From: an uncultured Chitinophagales bacterium
GTDB lineage: Bacteria; Bacteroidota; Ignavibacteria; UBA10030; UBA6906
Reading direction: 5' to 3'
Length of the DNA: 64,000 nucleotides
NCBI GenBank assembly: GCA_964538485.1
Contig: CAZIHJ010000001.1
Location: forward strand, 13,899 to 77,898
The notes under the pieces are model-generated. The model had not been told where the DNA came from. It searched no databases and saw only the letters and a program-made list of their open reading frames with translations. The position numbers and the translations under genes are program-made. Shown piece after piece: positions 33,272 through 61,173 of the stretch; the stretch's first letter is position 1, and each line of letters begins with the position of its first letter.

Positions 33272-33793
33272 ATGAACGGAACACACACACTTTCACGTGA
33301 ACTGCAGGAAATTGATCTCATCGTGACCAAATGCAAAGGAAGGCAGGGGGAATTGCTGACCATTCTTGAGCAGACACAGCTTCTCAATGAACAGAAGTAC
33401 CTTTCAGAGGAGGCTCTGAACCGTGTTGCTCTCAGGACAGGAGTGCCTCTTTCCCGGATCTATAATGTCGTTACGTTCTATTCATTCTTCAGTCTCAAAC
33501 CTCAGGGCAAGCACACACTCACTGTGTGTCGTGGAACCGCATGTCACACTAAGGGGTCGCGGGCCCTTCTGAACGATCTTGGACTGATTCTCGGCTGCAA
33601 CAAGGCGTTGTCGGACGGAGAATCAACCTTCACGACACCGGATAACCAGTTTACCATTTCCACAGTGGCATGTTTCGGTCAATGCGCTCTTGCTCCGGTC
33701 GTTGGCATTGATGGGATCATTCATAGCAACATGACGACGGCGAAGGTACAAAGGTTGGTGCAAAGGATCACCAAGCGGAGGATCAAGACATGA
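33272..33793 (+). CDS. NuoE/HoxE/HydC-like thioredoxin-fold [2Fe-2S] subunit
   Basis: CRGTACHTKG ... VACFGQCALAPV is the NuoE-type C-x4-C...C-x3-C [2Fe-2S] motif. Confidence 0.8.
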   Translation: MNGTHTLSRELQEIDLIVTKCKGRQGELLTILEQTQLLNEQKYLSEEALNRVALRTGVPLSRIYNVVTFYSFFSLKPQGKHTLTVCRGTACHTKGSRALLNDLGLILGCNKALSDGESTFTTPDNQFTISTVACFGQCALAPVVGIDGIIHSNMTTAKVQRLVQRITKRRIKT

Positions 33794-36700
33794 AGATCCA
33801 CGACGTAACAACGCTGAACGATATCCGTCAAAAGGGCCTCAAGAAACTGTTCCCTGATGTGCCAAAAATCTCGGTGGGCATGGGAACCTGTGGCCTCGGC
33901 AATGGCGCCCAGGATGTGCTCAAACGACTGCAGGATGTAATCAAAGAGAAGAAAGCAAGGATCCAGCTTTCCTCCGTGGGGTGCTTCGGCTTCTGTGCGG
34001 AGGAGACCCTTGTCAATTGCTACATACCCGGACAGCCGCTGGTCATTCTCCACAGAGTCACGCCGGGAGATGCCACCAATATTGTTGAGAGTCTCTCGAG
34101 AGGATTGATGCCGTTGCGGAAAGCGCTCTGCAAGATTGAGCAATGGGACTTCTGCACCTCTAAGATTGAGTTTGGAAAGGGAATTGGCAGCGTTCCCGTG
34201 TGGAACGAGCTTCCGTTCTTCAAAGGGCAGAAGAAGATCGTTCTCCGCGACGCGGGGTTGATCAACCCTGAAGACATCGAGGAGTACATCGCCGTCGGCG
34301 GGTACAGTGCATTGTTCAAGGCCCTGACACACATGACGCCGGAGATGGTGCTTGATGAGATCAAGAAATCGAAACTCCGTGGACGCGGGGGAGCAGGATT
34401 TCCTGTCGGCGTAAAGTGGGAAATGATGAAAAGCGCTCAGGCAGACAAGAAGTACATAATCTGCAATGCTGACGAGGGCGATCCCGGCGCGTACATGAAT
34501 CGTAATGAAATCGAAAGTGACCCCCACGCCCTCCTCGAGGGAATGCTCATCGGTGCCTATGTGATGGGAACCTCTGAAGGTGTCATGTATGTGCGAGCCG
34601 AGTATCCACTTGCAGTTCAACGTTTCACGAAGGCCATGGCTGCTGCCCGGGAGTACGGCATTCTCGGACAGAATATTCTCGGTTCATCATTCAACTTCCA
34701 AATCTCTCATGTTGAAGGAGCTGGCGCCTTCGTCTGCGGTGAAGAGACTGCACTTATCGCTTCTATTGAGGGAAGAGCAGGTCGTCCGATTCCACGGCCA
34801 CCCTACCCTGCCCAAAAAGGGCTCTGGGGAAAACCGACAAATATCAACAACGTTGAGACATGGATAAATATTCCTGTCATCGTGACGATTGGCGGGAACG
34901 AATTTGCAAAATTCGGAACACAGACCAGCACCGGCACAAAGGTGTTTTCCCTTGTTGGTAAGATCAAGAACACCGGATTGGTCGAGCTGCCTCTCGGCAC
35001 TCTGTTGCAGGATATTATCTATCAGATGGGTGAGGGAACCGGTAACAGGAAGAGGATCCGGGCAGTCCAGACTGGCGGCCCGTCGGGAGGATGTATTCCG
35101 GTTGAACATTTCAACACACCTGTCGACTATGAATCCCTCACCAAGCTGGGCACAATCATGGGCTCCGGGGGCATGGTGGTGATGGATCAGGACAATTGCA
35201 TGGTGGATGTTGCACGGTACTTTGTCGAAGTGACGTACAACGAGTCCTGCGGCAAGTGTACGCCCTGTCGTGAAGGGCTGGCACAATCTCTGGCCATCCT
35301 TAATAAGATCACGCGTGGTGAAGCAACCATGCATGATCTTGACACGCTTGAACGGTTGTCGTACGTGATCAGGGATTCATCACTCTGCGGCTTGGGACAA
35401 ACGAGTTCGAATCCTGTTTTGAGTACGTTGCGGTATTTTCGTGATGAGTATGAACGACATATCATCCAGCGGCGATGCAAGGCGGGAGTATGTGAGAACC
35501 TGTTCGTTGCCCTCTGCGAAAACAGTTGTCCGCTGCATATGAATATTCCCGGGTACCTCCAACTGTTGAAGGAAGTCCGACTTGAAGAGGCGTTTGAGCT
35601 CACGCTCAGAGATAATCCGTTGCCCGGTACGGTCGGAAGAATTTGCTACTTCCATTGTCAGGTTCGTTGCCGGCGTGATATGGTCGACGATCCGGTTTCC
35701 CAGGGGGAAATCCATCGCTATCTGGCTGACACCATGTATAAGATGGGGAAGGAGAAAGAAATCTATCAGCGGCTGATAAAAGAGAAACTCTCACCCACCC
35801 AAAAGAACATTGCCATCATTGGCGCGGGCCCCGCAGGACTGACAGCCGCCTATTACCTCGTCCGTCTCGGGCACAATGTAACGGTCTATGACAGCCACGC
35901 GAAGGCCGGTGGTATTCTGCAATACGGAATCCCCGCGTATCGTCTGCCAAAGGACGTGCTCAACAAAGAGCTTGAGCTCTTCAGGAAACTTGGTGTCACG
36001 TTCATCTTTAATACGCATATCGGGAAGGAAATTTCCCTGAAGGCCCTCCAGAAACAGAATGACGCAGTCTTCCTTGCGGTCGGGGCTCAGAAAGACATCG
36101 AGCTTGATATCGAGGGGAAGGACCTCGATGGCGTGCTGCAGGGCTACGAGTTCCTCGAACACCTTGGGGCGGGAGAGAAGCTCCAGATAGGCCAAAAGGT
36201 AGTGGTCATCGGAGCAGGCAACGTGGCAATCGATGCAGCCCGGTCGTGTGTGCGCCTCGGCGCTGACGTGACAATTGTCTACCGTCGCGACAGGGACGAA
36301 GTACCTGCCAACGAGCATGAAGTAAAGGACGCGATCGACGAGAATATCAGGTTCATGTTTATGTCCGCTCCACACCGGATCATTGGTGATGCAAAGGGGA
36401 GGGTGAAAGGTCTTGAAATCCGAAAGATGAAGTTCGACGGTTTCGACAACACCGGGCGGAAAAAACCTGTCGATACAGGAGAATCCGACATCATTGAGTG
36501 CACCAGAGTCATAGTTGCCATCGGAGAGAAGGTTGATTTTGAACCCGCAAAGGAGGTCGGGCTTGAACTCCGAAAGAACGGCACAGTGAAAGTGCATCCT
36601 CCGGCATACCGGACCAACCTGCCAAAGGTGTATGCCGGCGGTGACGCGGTGACGGGACCCGCAACGGTCGCCGAAGCCATGGGGATTGCCCGCCAGGCCT

Positions 36701-36951
36701 CAGAGGCAATCGACTTCGACCTGATGAATGAGAAACGCTTCCATCGACTCTTCAGAGAATTCCAATACAAAGACGAGGTGGTGCTGGAACCGGAAGTAAA
36801 TAAAAAAGTGGATCCACAGAGAATACCGATCAGAGAGAGAATCCACAGTTTTCAGGAGGTTTTGTCCGGATACTCCGGTGAAGAAGCAATGCAGGAAGCT
36901 CTCCGGTGCCTTCGCTGCGATGTCAAATGCCAGGAACACGAGGATAGCTAG
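33790..36951 (+). CDS. NuoF-like NAD(H)/FMN/[4Fe-4S] subunit fused to a C-terminal GltD/NfnB-like FAD/NAD(P)H oxidoreductase (1053 aa)
   Basis: N-terminal half has GRGGAGFPVGVKWE (the NuoF FMN/NADH motif), a SLBB domain, and the NuoF C-terminal cluster CGKCTPCREG. Residues ~610-1050 read IAIIGAGPAGLTAAYYL...VVVIGAGNVAIDAAR...VYAGGD, two Rossmann dinucleotide motifs typical of the glutamate-synthase small subunit or NfnB. Preceded by Cys clusters (CENSCPLHMNIPGY). Confidence 0.85.
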   Translation: MKIHDVTTLNDIRQKGLKKLFPDVPKISVGMGTCGLGNGAQDVLKRLQDVIKEKKARIQLSSVGCFGFCAEETLVNCYIPGQPLVILHRVTPGDATNIVESLSRGLMPLRKALCKIEQWDFCTSKIEFGKGIGSVPVWNELPFFKGQKKIVLRDAGLINPEDIEEYIAVGGYSALFKALTHMTPEMVLDEIKKSKLRGRGGAGFPVGVKWEMMKSAQADKKYIICNADEGDPGAYMNRNEIESDPHALLEGMLIGAYVMGTSEGVMYVRAEYPLAVQRFTKAMAAAREYGILGQNILGSSFNFQISHVEGAGAFVCGEETALIASIEGRAGRPIPRPPYPAQKGLWGKPTNINNVETWINIPVIVTIGGNEFAKFGTQTSTGTKVFSLVGKIKNTGLVELPLGTLLQDIIYQMGEGTGNRKRIRAVQTGGPSGGCIPVEHFNTPVDYESLTKLGTIMGSGGMVVMDQDNCMVDVARYFVEVTYNESCGKCTPCREGLAQSLAILNKITRGEATMHDLDTLERLSYVIRDSSLCGLGQTSSNPVLSTLRYFRDEYERHIIQRRCKAGVCENLFVALCENSCPLHMNIPGYLQLLKEVRLEEAFELTLRDNPLPGTVGRICYFHCQVRCRRDMVDDPVSQGEIHRYLADTMYKMGKEKEIYQRLIKEKLSPTQKNIAIIGAGPAGLTAAYYLVRLGHNVTVYDSHAKAGGILQYGIPAYRLPKDVLNKELELFRKLGVTFIFNTHIGKEISLKALQKQNDAVFLAVGAQKDIELDIEGKDLDGVLQGYEFLEHLGAGEKLQIGQKVVVIGAGNVAIDAARSCVRLGADVTIVYRRDRDEVPANEHEVKDAIDENIRFMFMSAPHRIIGDAKGRVKGLEIRKMKFDGFDNTGRKKPVDTGESDIIECTRVIVAIGEKVDFEPAKEVGLELRKNGTVKVHPPAYRTNLPKVYAGGDAVTGPATVAEAMGIARQASEAIDFDLMNEKRFHRLFREFQYKDEVVLEPEVNKKVDPQRIPIRERIHSFQEVLSGYSGEEAMQEALRCLRCDVKCQEHEDS

Positions 36952-36960
36952 AGGACACAA

Positions 36961-38790
36961 ATGGAAAATACGATGGTCAATATAAAAATTGATGGTGTAC
37001 AGTACCAGGTGAAGCAGAGCGTGACAATACTGGACGCGTGCAGGTTTACCGGGATCAAAGTACCAACCCTCTGCTTTCTTGAAGACGTTTCCAGGAATGC
37101 TTCATGCGCGATGTGTGTAGTGGAGGTGAAGGGTGCCCGTTCTCTCGTGCGCTCCTGCGTTACGTGTGTTTATGAGGGGATGGAGATAGCGACGACGTCG
37201 TCACGCATCAGAGAAACGAGAAAAACAAACCTTGAACTTTTGCTTGCCAATCATCCGAAAGAGTGTCTTTCCTGCCTGCGCAATAAGAACTGCGAACTGC
37301 AGACTCTTGCAGCCGATCTTGGTGTAAAGGAGGATCAGTTTGCGCGATCCAAAGAGGTCAGTGCAATGGACGAGACTTCTCCGTCAATCACAAGAGATCC
37401 GAACAAGTGCATACTCTGTGGCAGATGCATTGCGGTATGTCAGAATGTTCAAACAGTTTCGGCAATCGGCCTTTCCGGGCGGGGGGTCAAGACAAAGATT
37501 TCGACCTACTTTGAGAAAGGCCTTGGCCATGTTGCCTGTACATACTGCGGTCAGTGTGCGTTGGTCTGTCCTACCGGGGCAATTGTTGAACACGATGATA
37601 CGGACATCGTCTTCGAAGAGATCGGCAATCCGGAGAAGGTCGTGATCGTCCAAACCGCTCCGGCGATCCGAGTCGGAATCGGTGAAGCGATGGGGATGGG
37701 ATCGGGCATGCTCGTCACGGGCCAGATGGTCGCCGGTTTACGACGCCTCGGTTTTAACAAAGTCTTTGACACGCAGTTCGCGGCAGACCTGACTATCATT
37801 GAAGAGGGACATGAGTTGATCAACCGCATAACGAACAATGGTGTCCTGCCCATGGTTACCTCCTGTTCACCCGGATGGATAAAATTCGCAGAGCATTTCT
37901 TCCCTCATGCACTCGGACATCTCTCAACGTGCAAGTCTCCACAGCAGATGTTTGGATCAATAGCAAAGACGTACTACGCCGCGAAGATGGGAATCGATCC
38001 AAGAAAGATCGTCGTTGTTTCAATTATGCCGTGCACCGCAAAAAAATATGAGGCGAAGCGACCCGAGATGACCGGTGCGTTCAAGTACTGGAAAGAAAGG
38101 AGGGCATGGTCTGACGACGATATGTTTTATGATGTCGACTATGTACTGACGACGAGAGAACTTGCGAGGATGTTCAAGGAAACGGGAATTCAGTTTGCGC
38201 ATCTCCCTGCGGAGGAATTCGATAACCCGCTGGGTGAATCAACGGGAGCGGCTGCGATTTTTGGGGCGACAGGTGGCGTGATGGAGGCGGCTCTGAGGAC
38301 GGCGTATGAAGTGATGACTGGGAAATCATTGGAGAATCTCAATTTCGCTGCAGTGCGAGGGATGGAAGGAATCAAAGAAGCGGAAGTCGACATAGACGGC
38401 AGGAAGGTAAAGGTGGCCGTCGCCCACACATTGAAGAACGCGCGCAAACTTCTTGAGCAAATTGAGAAAGGGGAATCTCCGTACGCGTTTATCGAGATTA
38501 TGACATGTCCGGGTGGCTGCCTTGGTGGTGGCGGTCAGCCGATCCCGACCACATTGGAAATCCGGAAGTTGCGGGCGGAATCCATCTATGCGGAAGACGC
38601 AAGAAAACAGATCCGCAAATCACACGAGAACCCGGAGATTCAGATTCTCTACAAGGAATTTCTCAAGGAGCCGCTTGGAGAAATATCCCATCATCTTCTC
38701 CATACCTCATATAAGAAGCGCGGGCTTTTTGTTTGGAAGTCAGATGGTGACAAGCTTGAGGAGGCGGACGCGCTCGAAAGTAACCTGTGA
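36961..38790 (+). CDS. hydA: [FeFe]-hydrogenase catalytic subunit (M3-type: 2Fe-2S + 2x[4Fe-4S] + H-cluster domain)
   Basis: N-terminal NuoG-like [2Fe-2S] region, ferredoxin motifs CILCGRCIAVC and CTYCGQCALVCP, and H-cluster motifs L2 MPCTAKKYE and L3 EIMTCPGGCLGGGGQP. L1 reads TSCSPGW rather than the canonical TSCCPxW. Confidence 0.9.
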   Translation: MENTMVNIKIDGVQYQVKQSVTILDACRFTGIKVPTLCFLEDVSRNASCAMCVVEVKGARSLVRSCVTCVYEGMEIATTSSRIRETRKTNLELLLANHPKECLSCLRNKNCELQTLAADLGVKEDQFARSKEVSAMDETSPSITRDPNKCILCGRCIAVCQNVQTVSAIGLSGRGVKTKISTYFEKGLGHVACTYCGQCALVCPTGAIVEHDDTDIVFEEIGNPEKVVIVQTAPAIRVGIGEAMGMGSGMLVTGQMVAGLRRLGFNKVFDTQFAADLTIIEEGHELINRITNNGVLPMVTSCSPGWIKFAEHFFPHALGHLSTCKSPQQMFGSIAKTYYAAKMGIDPRKIVVVSIMPCTAKKYEAKRPEMTGAFKYWKERRAWSDDDMFYDVDYVLTTRELARMFKETGIQFAHLPAEEFDNPLGESTGAAAIFGATGGVMEAALRTAYEVMTGKSLENLNFAAVRGMEGIKEAEVDIDGRKVKVAVAHTLKNARKLLEQIEKGESPYAFIEIMTCPGGCLGGGGQPIPTTLEIRKLRAESIYAEDARKQIRKSHENPEIQILYKEFLKEPLGEISHHLLHTSYKKRGLFVWKSDGDKLEEADALESNL

Positions 38791-39033: not shown

Positions 39034-42000
39034 ATGGAACAAATCCCCAAACGTAAACACGTAACAATCGACGGAAACGAAGCAGCGGCTTACGTTGCCC
39101 ACAAACTCAACGAAGTTATTGCCATCTATCCGATCACGCCGTCGTCAAACATGGGCGAATGGGCAGATGAATGGTCGGCACAGGGCCGGAAGAACTTGTG
39201 GGGAACGGTCCCTTCGGTGACGGAGATGCAGAGTGAAGGTGGTGCAGCCGGAGCAGTTCATGGTGCCCTGCAAACAGGGGCTCTCTCCACGACGTTTACC
39301 GCTTCCCAGGGATTGCTCCTGATGATACCGAATATGTACAAGATTGCAGGCGAACTGACGTCAACAGTGTTTCATGTGTCCGCCCGTTCTCTCGCAACAC
39401 AGTCCCTCTCCATTTTCGGTGATCATAGCGACGTGATGGCCACACGAGGGACGGGGTTTGCAATGATGTGTTCAAACTCCGTGCAGGAAGTAATGGATTT
39501 TGCATTGATTGCCCAGGCAGCCACACTCGAAGCTCGCGTTCCGTTCCTTCATTTCTTCGACGGTTTCAGAACGTCCCATGAAGTCATGAAGATCGAACAA
39601 TTGAACGATGATGATATTCGCGCCATGATTGATGATGAATTGATTCACGCGCACCGTTCACGCGGTCTTTCTCCCGACCGTCCGGTGATGCGGGGAACAG
39701 CGATGAATCCCGACGTTTATTTCCAGGCACGCGAAACCGTGAACCCGTTCTATGCAGCGTGTCCGGCCATTGTGCAAAAGGCAATGGATAAGTTCGCAAA
39801 GGTTGTTGGACGTCAGTATCAATTGTTTGAGTATTTCGGTTCGCCCAACGCAGAGCGTGTCATTGTGATTATGGGTTCCGGAACCGGTGCCGTTGAGGAG
39901 ACGATCTCACATCTCAACAGCAAAGGCGAGAATGTTGGCGTCTTGAAAGTACGATTATTTCGGCCATTCTCAATTGCAGCATTTGTTCAAGCACTCCCGA
40001 AATCCGTCAAGACCATCGCCGTCCTCGACAGAACGAAGGAGCCCGGAGGCGCGGGCGAGCCGTTGTATCAGGATGTTGTGACCGCAATCGCCGAACGGCA
40101 CAGTTCCGGAACGCTTCCCTTTGTATTCCCAAGAATCATCGGCGGACGGTATGGACTTTCTTCCAAGGAATTTACGCCTGCGATGGTCAAAGGCGTCTAC
40201 GATGAGATGAAGAAGACCCCCCCGAAGAACCATTTCACCGTCGGCATCAATGACGACGTCACGCATACAAGTCTCGAGTATGATGCGGATTTTACCACGG
40301 AGCCCGACGATGTCGTACGGGCAATGTTCTATGGCCTTGGTGCTGATGGTACAGTTGGAGCGAACAAGAACTCCATCAAGATCATCGGAGAGGATACTGA
40401 TTTCTTTGCCCAGGGATATTTCGTTTACGACTCAAAGAAGTCAGGCTCAACAACGATTTCACATCTCCGTTTCGGTCCGCGTCCCATCAAATCAAACTAT
40501 CTGATTGAAAGAGCCAACTTCATCGCGTGCCATCAATGGTTCTTCCTTGAAAAATTTGATGTGTTGAAGAATGCAGTTCCGGGGGCAACTTTTCTTCTTA
40601 ACAGTTACTTCGGCCCGGACAAAGTGTGGGATGAACTACCACGCCAAATCCAGGAACAGATCATACGGAAGAAGATCAAGTTCTATGTGATTGATGGCTA
40701 CAAGGTTGCCCAGGCAACCGGTATGGGTGGTCGCGTGAATACTATTATGCAGACATGTTTCTTTGCCATCTCCGGCGTACTTCCGCGTGAACAGGCGATT
40801 GATGCGATCAAGAATTCAATCAAGAAAACATACGGGAAGAAGGGCGACCAGATCGTACAGCAAAACTTTGACGCCGTGGATCAGACTATTGCCAACCTTT
40901 TTGAAGTGACAATACCTGAACTGGTGACGAGCACTCTGGAGATGCCGTCCGCGGTTTCGTCGAAAGCGCCGGAGTTTGTTCGCAATGTCACTGGCGTAAT
41001 CATCGCCGGCATGGGTGATTCGCTTCCGGTCAGCGCGATGCCGATTGACGGGACGTTCCCGGTCGGGACAGCCCAATGGGAAAAGCGCAACATAGCTCTT
41101 GAAATTCCCGTCTGGGACACACAGGTTTGCATACAATGCAACAAGTGTGCGATTGTTTGTCCGCATGCAACCATCCGCATAAAGGTATATGATCCCAAGG
41201 AGTTAGCGGGCGCGCCGTCCACGTTCAAGTCAACTGACTACCGCGGCCCCGAATACAAGGGGATGAAATATTCGATTCAAGTTGCCCCCGAAGATTGTAC
41301 GGGATGCGGCATCTGTATAGAGATTTGCCCCGCCAAGAACAAATCGGAGACACGACTCAAGGCAATCAACATGATGCCGCAACCGGCTATCCGCGACCAG
41401 GAGAGAGAGAACTACGAGTTCTTCCTCAACCTTCCCGAGGTGGATCGGCGCGGAGTGAAAATGGATTCGGTGAAGGGGTCGCAGTTGCTTCAACCGTTAT
41501 TTGAATACTCCGGTGCGTGCTCGGGTTGCGGTGAGACGCCGTATCTCAAGTTGGTGACACAGTTGTTCGGCGATAGAATGCTTGTGGCAAATGCAACCGG
41601 CTGCTCATCCATCTATGGCGGCAACCTTCCGACCACACCGTGGACAAAGAACAATGACGGTCGGGGCCCGGCGTGGTCGAATTCACTCTTTGAGGACAAC
41701 GCTGAGTTCGGCATGGGTATGCGTCTCACTATCGACAAACACACAGAGATGGCGAAGGAGCTCGTGCAGGTCCTGGAACCGGTGATTGGAGCCGAGTTGG
41801 TGAATGCACTTCTCACAGCCAGCCAAGCTGATGAGGCCGGTATTTACGAACAGCGCCTGAGAGTTGAGGAGTTAAAGAAGAAACTGAAAATGATCACCTC
41901 TCCCGAAGCAAAGCAACTCGCGACTCTCGCCGACAGCCTTGTGAAGAAGAGTGTGTGGATTGTTGGTGGTGATGGCTGGGCGTATGATATCGGCTTTGGC

Positions 42001-42633
42001 GGACTTGACCATGTGCTCGCCTCGGGAAAGAACGTGAACATTCTCGTGCTCGACACGGAAGTGTACTCCAACACCGGCGGCCAGATGTCCAAGTCCACGC
42101 CACGTGGCGCGGTAGCGAAGTTTGCAGCGGGCGGCAAGCCGCGCGCGAAGAAGGACCTCGGCCAGATCGCAATGACCTACGGTAATGTCTACGTTGCAAC
42201 GGTGGCCATGGGTGCGAACGACATGCAAACCATCAAAGCATTCCTTGAAGCGGAAGCATACGATGGCCCGTCACTTATCATCGCATACAGTCATTGCATT
42301 GCACACGGCATTAACATGGAAAAGGGGATGGGCAACCAGAAAGCCGCGGTGGAAAGTGGCCATTGGCCGCTGTACCGCTACAACCCGACGCAGGACGCCA
42401 ATGGGAAGAACCCGTTCAAACTCGACTCCAAGGCCGCGAAGATCAAGTTCTCTGACTACGCCTATCTTGAGACGCGTTACAAAATGCTGACAAAGAGCGA
42501 TCCTGAAGCGGCGAAAAAACTGATGGAACTTGCACAGGAAGATGTCAACAAGCGATGGGAAATCCTTGAAGAGATGGCAAGGGATGGGAATGGAACCGCG
42601 CAAACGATTGTTCCACCGGTGCAGCATAACTAG
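39034..42633 (+). CDS. nifJ: Pyruvate:ferredoxin (flavodoxin) oxidoreductase, single-polypeptide NifJ/PFOR type
   Basis: 1199 aa; N-terminus VTIDGNEAAAYVAHKLNEVIAIYPITPSS; internal ferredoxin motifs CIQCNKCAIVCPHA and CTGCGICIEICP; a TPP-binding C-terminal domain (GGDGWAYDIGFGG). Confidence 0.95.
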   Translation: MEQIPKRKHVTIDGNEAAAYVAHKLNEVIAIYPITPSSNMGEWADEWSAQGRKNLWGTVPSVTEMQSEGGAAGAVHGALQTGALSTTFTASQGLLLMIPNMYKIAGELTSTVFHVSARSLATQSLSIFGDHSDVMATRGTGFAMMCSNSVQEVMDFALIAQAATLEARVPFLHFFDGFRTSHEVMKIEQLNDDDIRAMIDDELIHAHRSRGLSPDRPVMRGTAMNPDVYFQARETVNPFYAACPAIVQKAMDKFAKVVGRQYQLFEYFGSPNAERVIVIMGSGTGAVEETISHLNSKGENVGVLKVRLFRPFSIAAFVQALPKSVKTIAVLDRTKEPGGAGEPLYQDVVTAIAERHSSGTLPFVFPRIIGGRYGLSSKEFTPAMVKGVYDEMKKTPPKNHFTVGINDDVTHTSLEYDADFTTEPDDVVRAMFYGLGADGTVGANKNSIKIIGEDTDFFAQGYFVYDSKKSGSTTISHLRFGPRPIKSNYLIERANFIACHQWFFLEKFDVLKNAVPGATFLLNSYFGPDKVWDELPRQIQEQIIRKKIKFYVIDGYKVAQATGMGGRVNTIMQTCFFAISGVLPREQAIDAIKNSIKKTYGKKGDQIVQQNFDAVDQTIANLFEVTIPELVTSTLEMPSAVSSKAPEFVRNVTGVIIAGMGDSLPVSAMPIDGTFPVGTAQWEKRNIALEIPVWDTQVCIQCNKCAIVCPHATIRIKVYDPKELAGAPSTFKSTDYRGPEYKGMKYSIQVAPEDCTGCGICIEICPAKNKSETRLKAINMMPQPAIRDQERENYEFFLNLPEVDRRGVKMDSVKGSQLLQPLFEYSGACSGCGETPYLKLVTQLFGDRMLVANATGCSSIYGGNLPTTPWTKNNDGRGPAWSNSLFEDNAEFGMGMRLTIDKHTEMAKELVQVLEPVIGAELVNALLTASQADEAGIYEQRLRVEELKKKLKMITSPEAKQLATLADSLVKKSVWIVGGDGWAYDIGFGGLDHVLASGKNVNILVLDTEVYSNTGGQMSKSTPRGAVAKFAAGGKPRAKKDLGQIAMTYGNVYVATVAMGANDMQTIKAFLEAEAYDGPSLIIAYSHCIAHGINMEKGMGNQKAAVESGHWPLYRYNPTQDANGKNPFKLDSKAAKIKFSDYAYLETRYKMLTKSDPEAAKKLMELAQEDVNKRWEILEEMARDGNGTAQTIVPPVQHN

Positions 42634-50550: not shown

Positions 50551-51120
50551 TTACGAAAAGGGATTTCTATTGTGCTTTGCTTGTTCCAGGAGACTGGAGC
50601 AATAGGCACAAAAGCTATGACTTTTCATATCGAGTTCTTCCACATACGACGCTGCATGCATGACGCATGAATGCTGTGAGCAGTGCACGAGGCCCAGCGA
50701 GTGTCCGAGCTCATGAGTTGCTACTTTTTGCAAACGTTCCCGGACAAGGAGTGTATTTGACGGAAGTCCGTACAGCTCATTGCGGAATCGGTGATATGAT
50801 ACAACGGCAACATTCCCGCCCAGCGGGGCCTCGCCGAACACATATGTGAGTATGGGTATATACAAGTCATACCCTGTCACTCCGACGAGTTGCACCCCAT
50901 TGTCTGCGTGCCGCGGTTTTGCGCTGTTGAGTTGAGCCAGGAAATGCAGAATAGCGGTAGAATTGTATTGCCCCCGCTGCACGTCGTAGAAACGATCAAT
51001 GGCAAAGCGGTCCGGACAAATTCTTACCGGGACGCCGAACGTTTCGTGCAACGTCGAGTCCAAACCATCAAATACACCGGGGTCAACCTCTGCCAGCGGT
51101 TGTACCTCAATTGCCGTCAT
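50551..51120 (-). CDS. Archaemetzincin-family zinc metallopeptidase
   Basis: HELGHSLGLVHC (HExxHxxGxxH) followed by Cys-rich CSQHSCVMH...CAYC, characteristic of AmzA. Confidence 0.75.
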   Translation of the reverse strand: MTAIEVQPLAEVDPGVFDGLDSTLHETFGVPVRICPDRFAIDRFYDVQRGQYNSTAILHFLAQLNSAKPRHADNGVQLVGVTGYDLYIPILTYVFGEAPLGGNVAVVSYHRFRNELYGLPSNTLLVRERLQKVATHELGHSLGLVHCSQHSCVMHAASYVEELDMKSHSFCAYCSSLLEQAKHNRNPFS

Positions 51121-52459
51121 TGCGCTTTAAACCGTACTTCTGAATCTTGTGATAGAGCGTTACCCGGTCAATGTCAAGAATTGTGGCTGCGCGGCTTACA
51201 TTCCATCCTGTTTCGGCGAGAACCTCTTTGATATACTTGTGCTCCACATCTTCAAGTGTCTTCCTGCCATTGATTCCGACTACAGATGTTCTCAATGGAA
51301 GATGGTCCTTTTCAATTGTCGATCCGACACTCACCACAACAGCACGCTCGATTGCATTCTCCAACTCACGCACATTTCCCGGCCATTCATACCCCTTTAG
51401 TTCGAGCATGGCTTCACGCGAAAACCCCTCGATCCTCTTGTTCATGGCACGCGAATATTTATCAAGGAAATGATGGGCGAGTTTTGCAATATCTCCCTTC
51501 CGGCTACGGAGGGGAGGGATATGAATTGGAAAGACATTCACACGGTAAAAGAGATCTTCCCGGAACGTCCCGTCCTTAACCGCTTGCTCAAGGTCTTTGT
51601 TCGTTGCACAAATCACCCTGAAATCCGACGTGAGCACATCGCTTCCACCGACTCGTGTGAACTGCTTTGTCTCAATGACGCGGAGCAAGTCCATTTGCGT
51701 CTTTGGGTCAATGTTGCCGATTTCATCAAGGAACAATGTCCCTCCGTCGGCCATCTCGACTTTTCCCTTCCTCCGGTACTGCGCACCTGTAAATGCCCCC
51801 TTTTCGTGGCCGAAGAGTTCACTCTCCAGCAATGTCTCAGTCATCGCGCCACAGTTTACCGTGACGAGAGAAAAGAACTTTCGTTGACTGGCATTGTGAA
51901 TGGCCCGTGCTACCAGCTCCTTGCCTGTGCCGCTCTCACCGCGAATCATGACCGTGGTGTCCGCGACGGCAACGGTCTTCACAAGTTTCAAAACGTTGAG
52001 AATTTCAGGCGATTCTCCCACAATCTCATCCCCGCTGGTGAGTTCGCTGACTGCATCTTTCAACCTCTGATTTTCCTTCAGCAGTTCCTGTTCCTTGAGG
52101 ATCTTCTCCACCAGATGATCAAGGTAATCGGGGTCAATGGGTTTGGTGATGTAGTCGTACGCACCATCCTTGAGGGATTTCACGGCGGTATCCACCGCAG
52201 CAAACGCCGTGATAATGATAACGGCGATATGTTTGTTGGTCTCCTTTACACGATGCAACAGCTCGATCCCATCCATACCAGGCATCCGGATGTCGACAAA
52301 CATGATATTCCAACGATTCAATTGCAGTTTTCTTAGTGCGGCTGCGGCATTCTCCGCCACGTCAACACGGTACCCCTCTTCGGCAAACCACTTTGATAGT
52401 GATTCCCTCACAATCAACTCATCGTCCACGACGAGAATCCCGATCTCATTGTTGTTCAT
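51107..52459 (-). CDS. Sigma-54-dependent response regulator (NtrC family)
   Basis: REC (ILVVDDE...DIRMPGMDG), GESGTGKE, GAFTGA, and a Fis-type HTH at the C-terminus. Confidence 0.9.
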   Translation of the reverse strand: MNNNEIGILVVDDELIVRESLSKWFAEEGYRVDVAENAAAALRKLQLNRWNIMFVDIRMPGMDGIELLHRVKETNKHIAVIIITAFAAVDTAVKSLKDGAYDYITKPIDPDYLDHLVEKILKEQELLKENQRLKDAVSELTSGDEIVGESPEILNVLKLVKTVAVADTTVMIRGESGTGKELVARAIHNASQRKFFSLVTVNCGAMTETLLESELFGHEKGAFTGAQYRRKGKVEMADGGTLFLDEIGNIDPKTQMDLLRVIETKQFTRVGGSDVLTSDFRVICATNKDLEQAVKDGTFREDLFYRVNVFPIHIPPLRSRKGDIAKLAHHFLDKYSRAMNKRIEGFSREAMLELKGYEWPGNVRELENAIERAVVVSVGSTIEKDHLPLRTSVVGINGRKTLEDVEHKYIKEVLAETGWNVSRAATILDIDRVTLYHKIQKYGLKRNDGN

Positions 52460-54110
52460 AATCCATTTCCTTTCTTATTCCGGAAGTGTCCGGTTGCGAT
52501 GCATCCACTTCTTGCTTTACCGGAAACGTCAAGGTGAATGTAGTTCCTGCTCCCGGCCTGGAGTCCACGAGGATGGTCCCGTGGTGGTGCTGAACGATCC
52601 CATACACGACCGCCAGACCCAGACCAACACCCTTGCCTTCAGATTTTGTTGTGAAGAATGGCTCAAAAACGTGCGCCTTCACATCGTTGCTCATTCCGCA
52701 TCCTGTATCACTTACGCGAAGGATGACCTTTTCGGGTTGCTGCTGTTGCACCTCGATCTTCAGCGTTCCACCTGAAGCTCCGGGGGAGTCCATTGCTTCG
52801 ATTGCATTCGACATCAAGGCGATAAGCGCCTGTTGCAGTTGATTGGAATCTCCATCCATTACGACATCGTCTGCACGCGACACGATCACATCGATTCCAT
52901 GCATCCGGGCGTGGTGGCTCATGAGCATAACGCATCGATCCACAACCGTGTTCAAGGAAAGAGCGCCAAATGATCCGCCCCGATGTCGCGCAAAGACGAG
53001 CAGGTTCTTCACGATATTGCCACAACGGAGCGATTCATCTGCGATGAGTTTCAGTTCATCATGCATTTGCAGAAGTTCTTTTTCCGTGAGGGTGTTTCGT
53101 TTCACCCTCTTCATCAACAGTCTTGCAAATGTCAGAATGCCTTCAAGCGGGTTATTAAGTTCATGGGCAACAGTCGCCGCAAGGTTTCCTAACGATGCCA
53201 TTTTCTCCACTGTCACCATATGCCTGTGCGCCCGCTCCAGGTCCGCAGTTTTCTCTTCAACCTTCTGCTCGAGAGTTCGGGACCATTCTGTGAGTTCTTC
53301 CCGCGCCGCGGCGAGGTCATCCGTCATCCGGTTGAACGTTACAGCGAGCGTCCCGAGCTCATCACGCGATGTTGCTTCGAGTTTCTGATCCAGTTGGCCG
53401 GACGATACCAACTGCATTCCAGTCATCAATCGTTTAACAGGCCGGTTGATGACCATCCAAATGAAGCCCCCCGAAATCAAGGAGATCAACAGCACGGCGG
53501 CAAACGAAAGGAGGAGGAGCTGGTTTCTGCTTTGTTGCAGATGGACGTCCACCTGTGCAAGTGACATTTTTACGTCCAGCACCCCGAGGATGGTTTTCGA
53601 TTCCGGGTGTGCATGACACGCGGCGTCTGAACATTGCTGTTCATTCCTGATCGGAGTGATGAGTCCGAGAACGCGATCACCGTTCGGTTTGCTGAACACA
53701 CGGGTGAGCTGAGCAGGTGTTTGGGAGACGCTATCGAGATGCGAAGACGAATGACAGCTCACACACGCCTCGGCGTTCACGTCAACCTGGGTGTGCGTTT
53801 CATCCGGAATGGATCCGAAGATCACTTCACCCTGTTTGTTGTAAATGCGGATTCCCTCGAGTCCCGGCTCACCCCCGACCGAAGTGATGATGCTGCGAAC
53901 ATCATCTTTTTGATTGAGCAACATGCTGTGGCGCGTGGAGCGGGCGATGAGATCGCTGACGCGCGTCGCACTCATGATCACATTTTCCATAATGTGAGAC
54001 TGCTGGATGTGGACCGCGGCGAAGGTCAACGCAAACAGTATGATCGTCTGTACAGAGACGATCAACAAAAAGAGTCTGAACGCGATTGTCCTTGTGAGTT
54101 TCATAACCAT
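52446..54110 (-). CDS. Sensor histidine kinase with periplasmic sensor domain containing CXXCH motif(s), HAMP, HisKA, HATPase
   Basis: TM1 (residues ~8-33), a ~155-aa periplasmic domain containing ACVSCHSS (CXXCH) and CSDAACHAH, TM2, HAMP, an H-box HELNNPLEGI, and G-boxes DTGCGM and GVGLGL. Confidence 0.85.
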   Translation of the reverse strand: MVMKLTRTIAFRLFLLIVSVQTIILFALTFAAVHIQQSHIMENVIMSATRVSDLIARSTRHSMLLNQKDDVRSIITSVGGEPGLEGIRIYNKQGEVIFGSIPDETHTQVDVNAEACVSCHSSSHLDSVSQTPAQLTRVFSKPNGDRVLGLITPIRNEQQCSDAACHAHPESKTILGVLDVKMSLAQVDVHLQQSRNQLLLLSFAAVLLISLISGGFIWMVINRPVKRLMTGMQLVSSGQLDQKLEATSRDELGTLAVTFNRMTDDLAAAREELTEWSRTLEQKVEEKTADLERAHRHMVTVEKMASLGNLAATVAHELNNPLEGILTFARLLMKRVKRNTLTEKELLQMHDELKLIADESLRCGNIVKNLLVFARHRGGSFGALSLNTVVDRCVMLMSHHARMHGIDVIVSRADDVVMDGDSNQLQQALIALMSNAIEAMDSPGASGGTLKIEVQQQQPEKVILRVSDTGCGMSNDVKAHVFEPFFTTKSEGKGVGLGLAVVYGIVQHHHGTILVDSRPGAGTTFTLTFPVKQEVDASQPDTSGIRKEMDYEQQ

Positions 54111-54281: not shown

Positions 54282-55502
54282 TCATCCCCGTGAATCTGCG
54301 GGGACAAAACCCGCTCCGGCACCCGGGAGCTCCACTGCCTCTGAAACGTGGTCAGCACCCGCCACATGGCCGTGTTCGACCTCTTTCCCGAACACATCGA
54401 AGTACCGGGCAACAAATGAGAACGCAACGAATCCAAACGCGGCGAGAGCTATGGTGATGGCAAGTTCCTGCCATGAAGGAATATATGTCCGCGTTTGCCA
54501 CTGCTCCATGCTGGTGATGGCGGTATTCAATCTGTGGGCGACGAACCCAAGCAACACAAGAACGGAGGAATAGAACAGCCCGGTTTTACTCGTCCGGACT
54601 TTCTTGAACAGGAGCAGAGCGAAAGGAACCAGCACTCCCAATACGACTTCGCCAATGAACATCATGCTCTGGTACGTTGGTTCAAACACGTATTGTAATG
54701 CATCCCGATTCACCAGATCCTGAATTCGTACAGTGAAGTACAGAGCAAGCACGACTACCACGACTTTCGCCAACTGGGAGAGCAATGGCAGTTCTATTTC
54801 TCTCCCGAAGGCTCGCGCTGAAAGGAAGGATTCGAAGATCGTCATGCACAACCCTGCCGCAACGCACGAGATGATGAAGAGAAACGGAATGACGTTGGAA
54901 TACCAGAGCGGGTGCATTCTGCCTGGGATGATAAGGAACAGTGACCCGAGGGAAGACTGGTGGAGAGTAGAAAGAAGCACACCCGCAACGACCAATGGAA
55001 TAGTGATTGCCTTGACGACCTTCAACGCTCGCTTGAGCCGGAAACGCTCAAGAATCACGGGGCTAAACTCCAACGCGAGCACCGTGGTGTACAGCATCAC
55101 GCACCAGGCAACTTCGAACATCACCGATCTTGGGTTCCAATAAATGAGTGCGTGCCAGATGGCCCACGGACGCCCGAGATCAACCATCAGGCCTGCAATG
55201 ACAAGCAGATATCCGAGAAACGCTGTAAGAATGGTTGGTCGGAGAATTGGTCTGAACCGCTCAATGTTGAAGATATACACTGCCGCCGCGATCGTGAATC
55301 CGCCTGCTGCGAGTCCGACCCCAACCAGAATATCGAACCCGATCCATAATCCCCACGGAAATGTATCTGCGAGATTAGTTGTGGCCCCGAGGCCGAGAGT
55401 GAAGCGCTGGATCGTCGCCACAAGTCCGGCCACCATCAACGCCACGGCAACTACTTTCCAAAAAGTTATCTTAAGAAGTCCAGGAAATTTCATGATCATC
55501 AC
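54282..55502 (-). CDS. NrfD/PsrC-family polytopic membrane quinol-interacting subunit
   Basis: Roughly 10 TM helices with the NrfD-like pattern (GLWIGFDILVGVGLAAGG...). Start codon overlaps the stop of the upstream NrfC-like gene. Confidence 0.8.
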   Translation of the reverse strand: MMIMKFPGLLKITFWKVVAVALMVAGLVATIQRFTLGLGATTNLADTFPWGLWIGFDILVGVGLAAGGFTIAAAVYIFNIERFRPILRPTILTAFLGYLLVIAGLMVDLGRPWAIWHALIYWNPRSVMFEVAWCVMLYTTVLALEFSPVILERFRLKRALKVVKAITIPLVVAGVLLSTLHQSSLGSLFLIIPGRMHPLWYSNVIPFLFIISCVAAGLCMTIFESFLSARAFGREIELPLLSQLAKVVVVVLALYFTVRIQDLVNRDALQYVFEPTYQSMMFIGEVVLGVLVPFALLLFKKVRTSKTGLFYSSVLVLLGFVAHRLNTAITSMEQWQTRTYIPSWQELAITIALAAFGFVAFSFVARYFDVFGKEVEHGHVAGADHVSEAVELPGAGAGFVPADSRG

Positions 55503-56281
55503 CTTGTGTTAGTATTTGCTTGATCGTCTTTTTTGCGCAACTCCTCGGCTTCGAACCTCGCTACTTCTGTTCGACGTGCGGTGATCCAATGAATGCCGAA
55601 GAGTACCACGCTCGCTGCAACCGTGTACTTCGGAATTTGTGAGAGCACGCGCCACGAGAGATTGGGAATCGGCTCATTTGGAATGTTCATCGGGAAACCG
55701 AGCTTCTCAAACGGTATGGCAGAGATGTACAGGACGGAAGTTCCCCCGGCCTCTTTCAGTCCATAGATGTAGTTCACATACTGTCCGGGATTCTCGTCGA
55801 TGCGTTTTCTTGCTTCCGTGATCATCTCATCCCGATCACCGAAGGTTGTCGCTCCGAACTGGCACGCTTCAGCGCATGCTGTTGGCTGACCTGCAGTCAC
55901 GCGCTCATAGCACATCTTGCACTTCTGGACTCTTGGCGCAAGACTGCTCCATTCATAGCGTGGGATCTCAAATGGACATGCCTGCATACAGTACCGGCAT
56001 CCGATGCACTTCGACTCATCGTAGACAACGGCACCGGTTTCTGTCTTAGTGAACGCTCCCACGAGACAGGCAGAAACACACGTCGGCTCGTTACAGTGCA
56101 TACACAGTTTGCGCACATGGACTTCGTCATTCTGGAAGCTTTTCAACACGGTGTATCGGGTTGAGGAGAGCTCCTGCCCATCCTCCTGGGGAAGACCGTT
56201 TGTTTCTGCGCAGGCACGTGTGCATTCGCCACACCCCACACACTTGGTGATATCGATAAGCAACGCTTTTGACGTACTCAT
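55499..56281 (-). CDS. NrfC/PsrB/HybA-like 4x[4Fe-4S] ferredoxin subunit with C-terminal TM anchor
   Basis: CVGCGECTRAC, CMHCNEPTCVSAC, CIGCRYCMQACP and CKMC...C clusters, plus a C-terminal hydrophobic helix. Confidence 0.85.
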   Translation of the reverse strand: MSTSKALLIDITKCVGCGECTRACAETNGLPQEDGQELSSTRYTVLKSFQNDEVHVRKLCMHCNEPTCVSACLVGAFTKTETGAVVYDESKCIGCRYCMQACPFEIPRYEWSSLAPRVQKCKMCYERVTAGQPTACAEACQFGATTFGDRDEMITEARKRIDENPGQYVNYIYGLKEAGGTSVLYISAIPFEKLGFPMNIPNEPIPNLSWRVLSQIPKYTVAASVVLFGIHWITARRTEVARFEAEELRKKDDQANTNTR

Positions 56282-56991
56282 TGGCCGATCTCCTTGTGAT
56301 CAGACTCTTGTGCTTTGCGTAAGGTCGTGAACGTGTGACCGAAATCCTCCCAGATGCGATCGTCAAGCTGCTGGAGAACGCCGTCGACCGGCAACCCGCC
56401 CTCCTGTAAGGTCACCGGCTGTCCCTCCATCTCATTCATCGCAATAAAGTCCCGCACCAATACCACTTGTTCCCGCAACCATTCCATCGGTTGGCGGATA
56501 ATGTATTGTCGTGATGCTGCAATATCATCTACCCTTGATTTCAAACGGACAAGCCATCCCTTTCCATACGGATCAGTCATTATGAGCGAAGGGTCTCTCA
56601 GAACATCAGGGTTCGGCTCGACAACTCCACCGGCAACAGGTGTTGCCAGCCGGAATGATCGGCCGTTCGCACCCATTGAAAAATCAGCAAAAGAGGGTCT
56701 CGTCGTCTCTCCAGCGGGTGGGACGGCGATTGTTTCAACTACTCCCATCAGCCGGCTGAGAAACCCGTCAATCCCCAGCGTAATTGTCCCATCGTGGTTG
56801 GTCCGCATCCACATATGGTTGGTAGCGAGTTCGACATCCTGCGGGAGGTGACTCGGGAGTTGGAAAGGCCGTGGCCGCGATGTCGCCTGGAATGGCTTTC
56901 GCACCGCGACAGGCCGGCTACGTTTTTTTTGAACAACGTGGTCGATTGCCAGGAAAGTAATCAGTGTGCACAGCACGAGTAAGACAGTCAT
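56278..56991 (-). CDS. Membrane-anchored glycine-cleavage H-protein-like (GcvH-fold) protein lacking the lipoyl-lysine
   Basis: N-terminal TM helix, then NHMWMRTNHDGTITLGIDGFLSRLMGVVETIAVP...PYGKGWLVRLK. This parallels GcvH (KEHEWL...GITEHAQ...VFVDLP...ESVKA...SEPYAGGWIFKIK) but no Lys sits at the lipoylation position. GGAGG RBS. Confidence 0.6.
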   Translation of the reverse strand: MTVLLVLCTLITFLAIDHVVQKKRSRPVAVRKPFQATSRPRPFQLPSHLPQDVELATNHMWMRTNHDGTITLGIDGFLSRLMGVVETIAVPPAGETTRPSFADFSMGANGRSFRLATPVAGGVVEPNPDVLRDPSLIMTDPYGKGWLVRLKSRVDDIAASRQYIIRQPMEWLREQVVLVRDFIAMNEMEGQPVTLQEGGLPVDGVLQQLDDRIWEDFGHTFTTLRKAQESDHKEIGQ

Positions 56992-57003
56992 GGTAGTTCT
57001 CCT

Positions 57004-58052: not shown

Positions 58053-58191
58053 CCCCTTATTTCTCACAACTGAGAACCTCCACCCATGATTGAGATGCAA
58101 TTTCAGCGTTTTCATTGCTTTCTACCTCGGCATGTGCTTTGAATCTATGAAGGGTGTTGATTTGACAATACAACGGTTGATCTATCAGGTG

Positions 58192-61116: not shown

Positions 61117-61128
61117 CTTGATGCGTGA

Positions 61129-61158: not shown

Positions 61159-61173
61159 ATTTGTTTCATCGGT

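Follow-up and report, generated by a model that had tools for sequence, protein, structure and literature searches.

A natural serine-type L1 motif in a HydABC-type [FeFe]-hydrogenase encoded beside a HydB fused to a GltD/Nfn-like module

Introduction

The structurally solved enzyme most similar to the hydrogenase reported here is HydA1 of the electron-bifurcating HydABC complex of Acetobacterium woodii (PDB 7Q4V/7Q4W/8A5E). In its cryo-EM structure, Ser301 takes the place of a cysteine of the cluster and was termed a "serine ligand", and the enzyme displayed normal H-cluster infrared signatures as well as activity (Katsyv et al., 2023, PMC10021017); the resolution of these maps is moderate when it comes to identifying the ligand atom. 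Thermoanaerobacter kivui HydA (8A6T) and Clostridium pasteurianum CpI (e.g. 4XDC), the latter a monomeric and ferredoxin-dependent enzyme, possess the canonical L1 motif TSCCPxW.

The consequences of replacing the corresponding cysteine are known for the algal enzyme CrHydA1 of Chlamydomonas. In the C115S variant most of the [4Fe-4S] cluster was lost, [2Fe] was not taken up and no activity could be measured, and variants with A or D in place of C115 likewise had neither cubane nor activity (Kertess et al., 2017, PMC5855289). Thus, serine is not trivially neutral at this position, and natural Ser-type enzymes must be adapted to it. According to the same mutagenesis study (Kertess et al., 2017, PMC5855289), ~20% of [FeFe]-hydrogenase sequences carry serine at this ligand position. 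The motif TSCSPGW itself was reported from Melainabacteria genomes in 2013.

Two further groups are relevant for comparison. Nfn-Bfu and Stn transhydrogenases (9N5U, 8OH5, 9BOV) combine a BfuB/BfuC-type core with a GltD/NfnL-like FAD-NADP(H) module containing two [4Fe-4S] clusters; this module is located in a BfuA-like subunit devoid of the H-cluster, and the HydA-like subunits of these complexes are not known to contain H-cluster motifs. Sensory [FeFe]-hydrogenases (HydS, groups C/D), on the other hand, differ at the position of the proton relay and along the proton pathway, and they possess a PAS-type extension at the C-terminus.

In this study, we analyzed a hydrogenase locus within a 64-kb window (the whole stretch of DNA considered here, 64,000 nucleotides) from an uncultured bacterium. 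Whereas A. woodii is a Firmicute acetogen, the present host is Ignavibacteriota/Bacteroidota-like.

Results and discussion

HydA belongs to the HydABC-type catalytic subunits

The hydA gene and its active-site features were located as follows:

36961..38790, + strand: hydA, 609 aa, M3-type [FeFe]-hydrogenase catalytic subunit (Pfam, NCBIfam, PDB match, AF2)
37804..37827, + strand: proton-transfer residues E282, E285 and R289 (CpI E279, E282 and R286; gap-free CpI alignment)
37858..37878, + strand: L1 motif T300-S301-C302-S303-P304-G305-W306 (codons ACC TCC TGT TCA CCC GGA TGG), with the S303 codon TCA at 37867..37869
37930..37947, + strand: C324 (37930..37932; CpI A321) followed by K325-S-P-Q-Q329 (37933..37947), second-sphere residues of the [2Fe] subcluster (translation, alignment)
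38026..38052, + strand: L2 motif MPCTAKKYE, aa 356-364, with the cubane ligand C358 and K361 (translation, alignment)
38503..38541, + strand: L3 motif T515-C516-PGG-C520-LGGGGQP (TCPGGCLGGGGQP), aa 515-527, with the cubane ligand C516 and the bridging cysteine C520 (translation, alignment)

HydA contains a [2Fe-2S] site, a His-ligated [4Fe-4S] site, a 2x[4Fe-4S] region, the H-domain and a small-subunit-like tail, and it matched the Pfam families PF13510, PF10588, PF22117, PF02906 and PF02256. All ligands of the M3 F-domain were retained in alignment A1 (C38/C49/C52/C66, H98/C102/C105/C111, C150/153/156/160 and C193/196/199/203). HydA scored 874.9 bits against NCBIfam NF040763 ("group A6"; cutoff 765), next to 873.8 for the Ser-type A. 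woodii HydA1 and 851.7 for the Cys-type T. kivui HydA. Its top PDB match was A. woodii HydA1 (7q4v_A, E 9e-190), with which it shares ~60% identity, domain architecture and NCBIfam family. The AF2 model (pLDDT 90.6) agreed with these results, as Foldseek gave TM values of 0.90 for T. kivui HydA (8a6t_A), 0.89 for A. woodii HydA (7q4w_A) and 0.87 for CpI. A protein identical to HydA is recorded in NCBI (P0001). Thus, HydA is the catalytic subunit of a HydABC-type group A [FeFe]-hydrogenase.

Serine replaces a cubane ligand in an otherwise intact active site

The translation of hydA contains LPMVTSCSPGWIKFAEHFFPHALGHLSTCKSPQQMF, in which the canonical TSCCPxW with both cysteines is absent and TSCSPGW is present instead; the codons therefore bear out the first-pass annotation, which had reported the second cysteine of L1 to be replaced by serine. 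HMMER alignments of HydA with CpI, A. woodii HydA1 and T. kivui HydA were gap-free from L1 through KSPQQ, so that S303 corresponds to the cubane ligand C300 of CpI and C302 to its proton relay C299. Hence the substituted residue is indeed the [4Fe-4S]H ligand and not the relay cysteine, as had been proposed, and no local insertion shifts the serine away from the ligand position.

The remaining H-cluster motifs were found to be complete. L2 and L3 had been described as intact, and this held, with C358, C516 and C520 all in place; C358 and K361 were invariant in alignment A1. The whole proton pathway of CpI (C299, E279, S319, E282 and R286) is also present in HydA as C302, E282, S322, E285 and R289. 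In these respects HydA resembles A. woodii HydA1, in which L2, L3 and the proton pathway are intact and L1 is an identical TSCSPGW; both also have Cys before KSPQ (SSCKSPQ in A. woodii, STCKSPQ here), and they differ in the residue before the first L3 cysteine (Ala and Thr, respectively). T. kivui HydA and CpI share with HydA the fold, F-domain clusters, L2, L3, relay cysteine and proton pathway; however, besides their canonical L1, they have Ala (STARSPQ and SSAKSPQ, respectively) where HydA has Cys324.

It had been suggested that such a protein might be a sensory or regulatory (group C/D-like) hydrogenase; in a HydS-like enzyme of this kind, the altered active site would be tuned for H2 sensing. 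The one feature of HydA pointing in this direction is its departure from the canonical L1. The window also encodes two histidine-kinase/sigma-54 regulator pairs (8801..11884 and 51107..54110), though these are >12 kb away from the operon. Although both HydS and HydA deviate from the L1 consensus, it is the cluster ligand that is changed in HydA, whereas both the relay cysteine and the entire proton pathway are retained, and no PAS or other sensor domain was detected by Pfam. Moreover, HydA exceeds the NF040763 cutoff, as do the two HydA subunits of electron-bifurcating enzymes that have been characterized structurally and are proven to be catalytic. The hydA gene forms part of a hydC-hydB-hydA operon, and its neighbors encode diaphorase-type subunits and a pyruvate:ferredoxin oxidoreductase (PFOR) rather than regulators. 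A sensory role thus appears extremely improbable.

The serine variant is widespread among [FeFe]-hydrogenases

Whether the L1 variant was conserved in orthologs had been raised as a check, and the answer was clear: TSCSPGW together with S[TS]CKSPQ occurred in 120/120 homologs at 76-100% identity and in 80/80 genomic loci from other species (up to 81% identity). These relatives span Ignavibacteriota/Bacteroidota, Spirochaetia, Planctomycetales and Omnitrophota. Across the loci, Ser303 was encoded by all four TCN codons (TCG 36, TCT 25, TCA 11 and TCC 10). A sequencing or assembly error, that is, TCA read for TGY, had also been considered. With serine in all 200 independent relatives, synonymous codons in use and an identical protein in NCBI (P0001), such an error is excluded for practical purposes, its probability being negligible.

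To place the variant in a broader set, we clustered sequences at 50% identity, aligned the resulting 150 representatives with MAFFT and used the 130 that have the relay cysteine for counts. Serine occupied the cubane-ligand position in 27 of these 130, the other 103 being of the Cys type, which is consistent with the published frequency of about one fifth. With this share of the sampled enzymes and an active, structurally solved A. woodii enzyme both carrying serine, the variant is an ordinary one and already known, and the rarity implied by the first-pass annotation has to be abandoned. Likewise, the canonical two-cysteine L1 is not truly defining for the group A6 family.

The active-site residues were highly conserved in the Ser-type representatives. 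All of them retained E285, R289, C302, M356, C358 and K361, and nearly all kept E282 and S322, with one exception each (P0129 and P0136). M514, C516 and C520 were present in every Ser-type sequence covering L3. A neighbor-joining tree of H-domains was star-like with the Ser-type sequences scattered over it, and the Fitch count of 21 (all states) is unreliable for the number of origins.

Cys324 is a common residue rather than a replacement ligand

An extra cysteine close to KSPQQ had been noted as well. The cysteine is real; however, it immediately precedes KSPQQ (S-T-C324-K-S-P-Q-Q) instead of lying two residues upstream, and it is hardly "extra", since Cys is the majority residue at column 324 (75/130 representatives), with the Ala found in CpI being in the minority. 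We considered whether it could be part of a cysteine swap, in which Ser303 would be a spectator and the fourth cubane ligand would be Cys324 or the adjacent Cys302. First, Cys324 is invariant in the clade (120/120 homologs and 80/80 loci), and in the AF2 model residue 324 belongs to a beta-bridge just past the helix starting at L1, which might bring it close to the L1 strand. For Cys302, a precedent exists in CrHydA1 C115A, where the neighboring relay cysteine was suggested as a stand-in (Kertess et al., 2017, PMC5855289). Second, in contrast with these observations, Cys324 did not covary with the serine, as it was about equally common in Ser-type (19/27) and Cys-type (56/103) representatives (Fisher p = 0.19), and two full-length Ser-type proteins (P0123 and P0152) have Ala324 and Ala515 with no other compensating cysteine. 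An unbiased scan of all columns in the alignment of 150 representatives revealed no cysteine column tracking the serine variant. In A. woodii, it is Ser301 that was described as standing in for the ligand cysteine (Katsyv et al., 2023, PMC10021017), and the use of Cys302 as a ligand would cost the proton relay, yet the activity and infrared states of that enzyme are normal. A swap is therefore quite unlikely, and Cys324 was rejected as a substitute cubane ligand; it is a common and ordinary residue at its column. The earlier proposal of an alternative cluster ligand thus survives in one part, a non-cysteine residue at the ligand position as in A. woodii, and fails in the other, the recruitment of Cys324.

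Other changes that might accompany the serine were searched for around the H-cluster. A second-sphere signature near L1 (Ile/Val for Phe before TSC, and PGW for PAW) was strongly associated with the Ser type across the representatives (p ~1e-5); however, it vanished when each Ser-type sequence was set against its nearest Cys-type relative, which indicates a lineage effect rather than an adaptation to serine. Only position 515 (CpI A498) still differed in that comparison, being non-Ala in 12/20 Ser-type vs 3/28 nearest Cys-type sequences, a weak signal obtained without phylogenetic correction. Among the 120 close homologs, 117 have T and 3 have S at residue 515, whereas Cys-type enzymes nearly always have Ala.

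A Ser-type H-cluster is probably functional

Taken together, HydA very probably serves as catalytic subunit in a multimeric group A hydrogenase of the HydABC/Bfu type, linked to NAD(P)H, and combines a natural Ser-type L1 with a normal H-cluster. By analogy with the characterized enzymes, the [4Fe-4S]H cubane and the [2Fe] subsite would be anchored by C358, C516 and the bridging C520, with C302 acting as the proton relay that feeds the E282/S322/E285/R289 pathway and Ser303 filling the fourth cubane position (CpI Cys300). Most likely, Ser303 binds the cubane iron through its oxygen, as reported for A. woodii Ser301, and one would expect HydA to work as a normal hydrogenase, competent in catalysis and bidirectional. 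The physiological direction of the complex and its electron partners (NADH, NADPH or ferredoxin) are a matter of speculation.

The serine in L1 is in itself of little weight, given its appearance in surveys, in Melainabacteria (2013) and in the A. woodii structure (2023). It does, however, call for caution in annotation: a TSCSPGW motif should not be taken as evidence of an inactive or sensory hydrogenase. It also leaves a puzzle, because engineered C115S in CrHydA1, the same change at the same position as natural S303, abolishes cluster binding and yields an inactive protein, whereas A. woodii HydA1, which has serine naturally, shows full activity. The widespread clade described here offers many sequences for locating the compensating changes.

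The HydB fusion and the genomic neighborhood

Upstream and downstream of hydA, the following genes were identified:

33272..33793, + strand: hydC-like, 173 aa, NuoE/HoxE-type thioredoxin-like [2Fe-2S] subunit (Pfam PF01257, E 3e-37)
33790..36951, + strand: hydB-like, 1053 aa, NuoF/BfuB-type FMN subunit fused to a GltD/NfnL-like module (Pfam, PDB)
39034..42633, + strand: PFOR, 1199 aa, directly downstream of hydA (Pfam POR_N, POR, EKR, PFOR_II, TPP_enzyme_C)

The three hydrogenase genes lie on the same strand in the order hydC-hydB-hydA, an arrangement conserved in related loci, and hydC is kept upstream of hydB in nearly all of them. The NCBIfam matches of HydC were of the NuoE/HoxE type, every one of them under its cutoff.

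HydB showed a more unusual organization (Pfam: Complex1_51K, SLBB, NADH_4Fe-4S, Fer4_20 and Pyr_redox_2). Its NuoF/BfuB-type part (aa ~30-572) matched 7t2r_B, 9n5u_B and 7q4v_B in the PDB (aa 30-572), and the remainder (aa ~573-1044), which comprises Fer4_20 and an FAD/NAD(P)-binding domain, matched the GltD-like parts of 9bov_A, 9n5u_A, 8oh5_C and 5jca_L (aa 573-1044). In the Bfu family, BfuB contains FMN, SLBB and NuoF-[4Fe-4S] domains and, at its C-terminus, a ferredoxin-type 2x[4Fe-4S] domain, IPR017896 (Schut et al., 2022, PMC9304861), and A. woodii HydB is such an ordinary BfuB of ~600 aa with a C-terminal ferredoxin domain. In HydB here, Pfam found the FMN, SLBB and NuoF-[4Fe-4S] domains and no ferredoxin-type Fer4 domain, whose usual C-terminal place is occupied by the GltD/NfnL-like module. 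Fer4_20, which also bears two [4Fe-4S] clusters, may or may not replace the ferredoxin domain functionally; without the canonical domain, the complex may behave unlike the characterized HydABC enzymes. Where upstream sequence was available among the 80 related loci, nearly all had the fusion. It is a more unusual feature than the L1 serine and a more promising lead for new biochemistry. A literature search on BfuB-GltD fusions, "group A6" and serine coordination of the H-cluster returned nothing useful.

The module also bears on a further alternative, that HydA carries a dead H-domain as a relic within an Stn/Nfn-Bfu-type NADH/NADPH/ferredoxin transhydrogenase. The GltD-like NADP(H)/FAD module of HydB does resemble NfnA (9n5u_A) and Stn-type complexes (9bov_A and 8oh5_C), one cubane ligand cysteine is gone, and no hydE/F/G maturase genes were found within the 64-kb window, where the sole radical-SAM ORF is HemN-like. 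However, in Nfn-Bfu and Stn the module belongs to a BfuA-like subunit that lacks the H-cluster, whereas at this locus it forms the C-terminal part of HydB, and the BfuA homolog is a complete hydrogenase, with all H-cluster motifs save the C-to-S change in L1. All [2Fe]-subsite residues and the proton pathway are conserved in ~200 relatives under purifying selection, which is not expected of a relic, and a Ser-type enzyme is active in A. woodii (Katsyv et al., 2023, PMC10021017). We thus regard a dead H-domain as very unlikely, and a functional Ser-type hydrogenase remains the preferred reading.

HydC, HydB::GltD and a HydA with Ser303, Cys324 and Thr/Ser515 formed a co-conserved set in nearly all of the 80 loci. 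Tentatively, and with the odds rather against it, this set might represent an uncharacterized Bfu-type hydrogenase with a second flavin site and a co-adapted H-cluster. If so, the second flavin site would stand in place of the ferredoxin-binding domain and couple H2 to both NAD(H) and NADP(H), and the oxygen-ligated cubane and altered residue 515 would reflect co-adapted tuning of the H-cluster potential instead of neutral drift. Such tuning would also explain the cluster loss in engineered Chlamydomonas HydA1.

Finally, the neighbors of the hydA operon include PFOR, an EamA transporter and a TonB receptor. The adjacency of hydA and PFOR was not conserved across the 80 related loci; at the present locus, PFOR is a plausible source of reduced ferredoxin.

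H-cluster motifs and family assignment of HydA

Judged from its sequence, HydA was shown to lack only one cluster ligand among the features of catalytic group A H-domains. The gene and the residues discussed here are as follows.

36961..38790, + strand: hydA ORF, encoding 609 aa
37858..37878, + strand: L1, T300-S-C302-S303-P-G-W, codons ACC TCC TGT TCA CCC GGA TGG
37930..37932, + strand: C324, codon TGC, with K-S-P-Q-Q directly after it
aa 356-364: L2, MPCTAKKYE, intact
38503..38505, + strand: T515, directly preceding the first cysteine of L3, equivalent to A498 of Clostridium pasteurianum hydrogenase (CpI)
aa 515-527: L3, TCPGGCLGGGGQP, intact

HMMER alignments of HydA with CpI, A. woodii HydA1 and T. 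kivui HydA were gap-free from L1 to KSPQQ; thus, S303 corresponds to CpI C300 (the [4Fe-4S]H ligand), C302 to C299 (the proton relay) and C324 to A321. The TSCSPGW motif reported in the first-pass annotation was supported by both the codons and these alignments, and the ligand position is indeed occupied by a residue other than cysteine. The same annotation placed an extra cysteine two residues upstream of KSPQQ; this cysteine is present, but it immediately precedes the motif. The proton-pathway residues E282, E285, R289, S322 and C302 were all found, as were K361, M356 and M514 around the [2Fe] site.

Pfam analysis revealed the full M3 architecture ([2Fe-2S], NuoG-type His-ligated [4Fe-4S], two ferredoxin-type clusters, H-domain and small-subunit-like tail). 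HydA scored 874.9 bits (cutoff 765) against NCBIfam NF040763, "NADH-dependent [FeFe] hydrogenase, group A6", close to the HydA proteins of A. woodii (873.8) and T. kivui (851.7), both electron-bifurcating and structurally characterised. This profile score puts HydA and an active Ser-type enzyme, that is, one with serine at the L1 cubane-ligand position, into one curated family. An AlphaFold2 model built from a 50-sequence alignment was confident (pLDDT 90.6) and could be superposed on T. kivui HydA, A. woodii HydA and CpI with TM scores of 0.90, 0.89 and 0.87, respectively. The suggestion that the protein is a sensory (group C/D) hydrogenase was rejected, as Pfam found no PAS or other sensor domain in HydA and no regulator adjoined hydA. 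No hydE, hydF or hydG gene was found within the 64-kb window.

Occurrence and conservation of the serine variant

Serine at the cubane-ligand position is already known as a natural variant; it is common, and one enzyme carrying it has been characterised experimentally. A. woodii HydA1 (7q4v_A, E 9e-190), the top match among all solved structures, has an identical TSCSPGW motif followed by SSCKSPQ (STCKSPQ here), and its Ser301 is reported to stand in for one of the cysteines that ligate the H-cluster cubane (PMC10021017). A mutagenesis study of Chlamydomonas HydA1 noted serine at this position in ~20% of putative hydrogenase sequences (PMC5855289). In our survey of a library clustered at 50% identity, 130 of the 150 best representatives kept the relay cysteine, and the ligand position was serine in 27 of them (21%) and cysteine in 103. 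TSCSPGW was also described in Melainabacteria hydrogenases in a 2013 genome paper (PMC3787301), where two ACD20 proteins additionally carried isoleucine for an L3 cysteine; these are more degenerate than the present HydA, whose L3 is intact.

The variant proved to be conserved in relatives: TSCSPGW followed by S[TS]CKSPQ was present in 120/120 database homologs (76-100% identity) and in 80/80 loci from species-representative genomes, which included Ignavibacteriota/Bacteroidota MAGs (75-81% identity), Spirochaetia and Paludibacter (~70%), and Planctomycetales and Omnitrophota (~62%). Across related loci the serine was encoded by TCG (36), TCT (25), TCA (11) and TCC (10), a synonymous mix that at the codon level bears the signature of purifying selection on this residue. 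Because serine was kept through four different codons, a sequencing error could be excluded.

Cys324 and adaptation to serine at the ligand position

The first-pass annotation also raised the possibility of an alternative cluster ligand, for which Cys324 was considered here as a candidate. Cys324 is invariant throughout the immediate clade of HydA, which leaves a small probability of a swap in this clade; however, serine is reported at the ligand position in the published structure of the A. woodii homolog. Among the representatives, cysteine was the majority state in the column of Cys324 and occurred in 56/103 Cys-type and 19/27 Ser-type proteins (Fisher p = 0.19). Seven Ser-type representatives had alanine there, and two of these seven (P0123 and P0152 of the library) were full-length, with all other motifs complete and no cysteine at neighbouring candidate positions. 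A scan of every column of the representative alignment found no cysteine tracking the serine variant. Nothing points to a swap, and Cys324 is very probably not a substitute ligand. Ser303 most likely binds the cubane iron via its oxygen, with C358, C516 and C520 making up the rest of the H-cluster and C302 acting as the proton relay, and the enzyme is expected to turn over H2 in both directions.

In Chlamydomonas HydA1, the ligand C115 (numbering of the paper) lies beside the relay C114, and its replacement by Ser, Ala or Asp caused loss of most of the cubane, no uptake of the [2Fe] subsite and inactivity (PMC5855289). Therefore, natural Ser-type enzymes must be adapted to the change. Ile/Val for Phe before L1 and PGW for PAW inside L1 were apparently significant in the Ser-type column scan, and this signature was rejected as a lineage effect once each Ser-type protein was set against the Cys-type protein nearest to it. 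The only difference surviving that comparison (alignment of library proteins P0122-P0270) was at position 515, where non-Ala residues (G/C/T/S) occurred in 12/20 Ser-type proteins vs 3/28 nearest Cys-type relatives, as raw counts that ignore kinship. In 120 close homologs this residue was Thr (117) or Ser (3). The change may be one by which the second sphere is adapted to a serine ligand; A. woodii HydA1 has Ala here, and residue 515 is therefore at most a partial answer. The H-domain neighbour-joining tree was star-like with scattered Ser-type sequences; any number of independent origins read from it is not reliable.

Operon context and the HydB fusion

Three genes flank hydA.

33272..33793, + strand: hydC, NuoE-like, upstream of hydA
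33790..36951, + strand: hydB, NuoF-like, 1053 aa, upstream of hydA
39034..42633, + strand: pyruvate:ferredoxin oxidoreductase (PFOR), 1199 aa, 244 bp downstream of hydA

HydB is unusual in being a fusion of a NuoF/BfuB-type subunit (aa 30-572, matching 7t2r_B, 9n5u_B and 7q4v_B) with a GltD/NfnL-like Fer4_20 plus FAD/NAD(P) module (aa 573-1044, matching the FAD-NADP(H) module of NfnA, Stn-type complexes and NfnI). A C-terminal ferredoxin-type domain is one defining feature of the Bfu family (PMC9304861), and Pfam detected none in HydB, in which the GltD/NfnL-like module replaces the usual 2x[4Fe-4S] C-terminus. The fusion was found in nearly all related loci with upstream sequence available, and the order hydC, hydB::gltD, Ser-type hydA was kept in nearly all of the 80 loci, spanning four or more phyla. 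An archaeal hybrid hydrogenase whose HydB has a glutamate-synthase-type domain has been mentioned (PMC11216029), and a limited literature search found no description of the bacterial arrangement. This gene set may represent a Bfu hydrogenase type, so far uncharacterised, with a link to NADP(H), and the conserved fusion is a lead that deserves more follow-up than the L1 variant. No PFOR match was found within 9 kb of hydA in any of the 80 related loci; hence, the hydA-PFOR adjacency is specific to this genome. More speculatively, it suggests ferredoxin-driven H2 production combined with NAD(P)H.

In the thioredoxin-like domain at the N-terminus of HydB (33790..33990), the aligned cluster region contains no more than three cysteines (GMGTC...VGCFGFC), similar to NfnB (9n5u_B) and Stn B subunits (9bov_B, 8oh5_B), and recalls the partially non-Cys-coordinated [2Fe-2S] cluster described for the Bfu family (Schut et al., 2022; PMC9304861).

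Other observations

One representative-library match (P0121, 4122 aa predicted) contained seven tandem H-domains: six copies at a 444-aa period, the first two ~97.5% identical, plus one more divergent copy. Their L1 reads TSCCA[SG]W (Pro to Ala), followed by STCKSPM/SSCKSPM, and the protein represents either an array of hydrogenases in polyprotein-like form or a product of faulty assembly. Elsewhere in the window, a 4Fe-4S dicluster protein and an NrfD-type membrane subunit have as neighbours two adjoining genes (54282..57726, - strand) for proteins with glycine-cleavage-H-like (lipoyl-carrier-type) domains, extended at the N-terminus by membrane-like segments. For a quinone-interacting complex, such a set of proteins is unusual. 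Finally, several multihaem cytochrome c genes with MtrC/MtrF-like, c554-like and NapC/NirT-like domains (6484..8727, - strand; 58090..62691, + strand), one of which has a cytochrome b561-type membrane domain as its fusion partner, hint that the organism encoding this cytoplasmic hydrogenase also transfers electrons outside the cell or in the periplasm.
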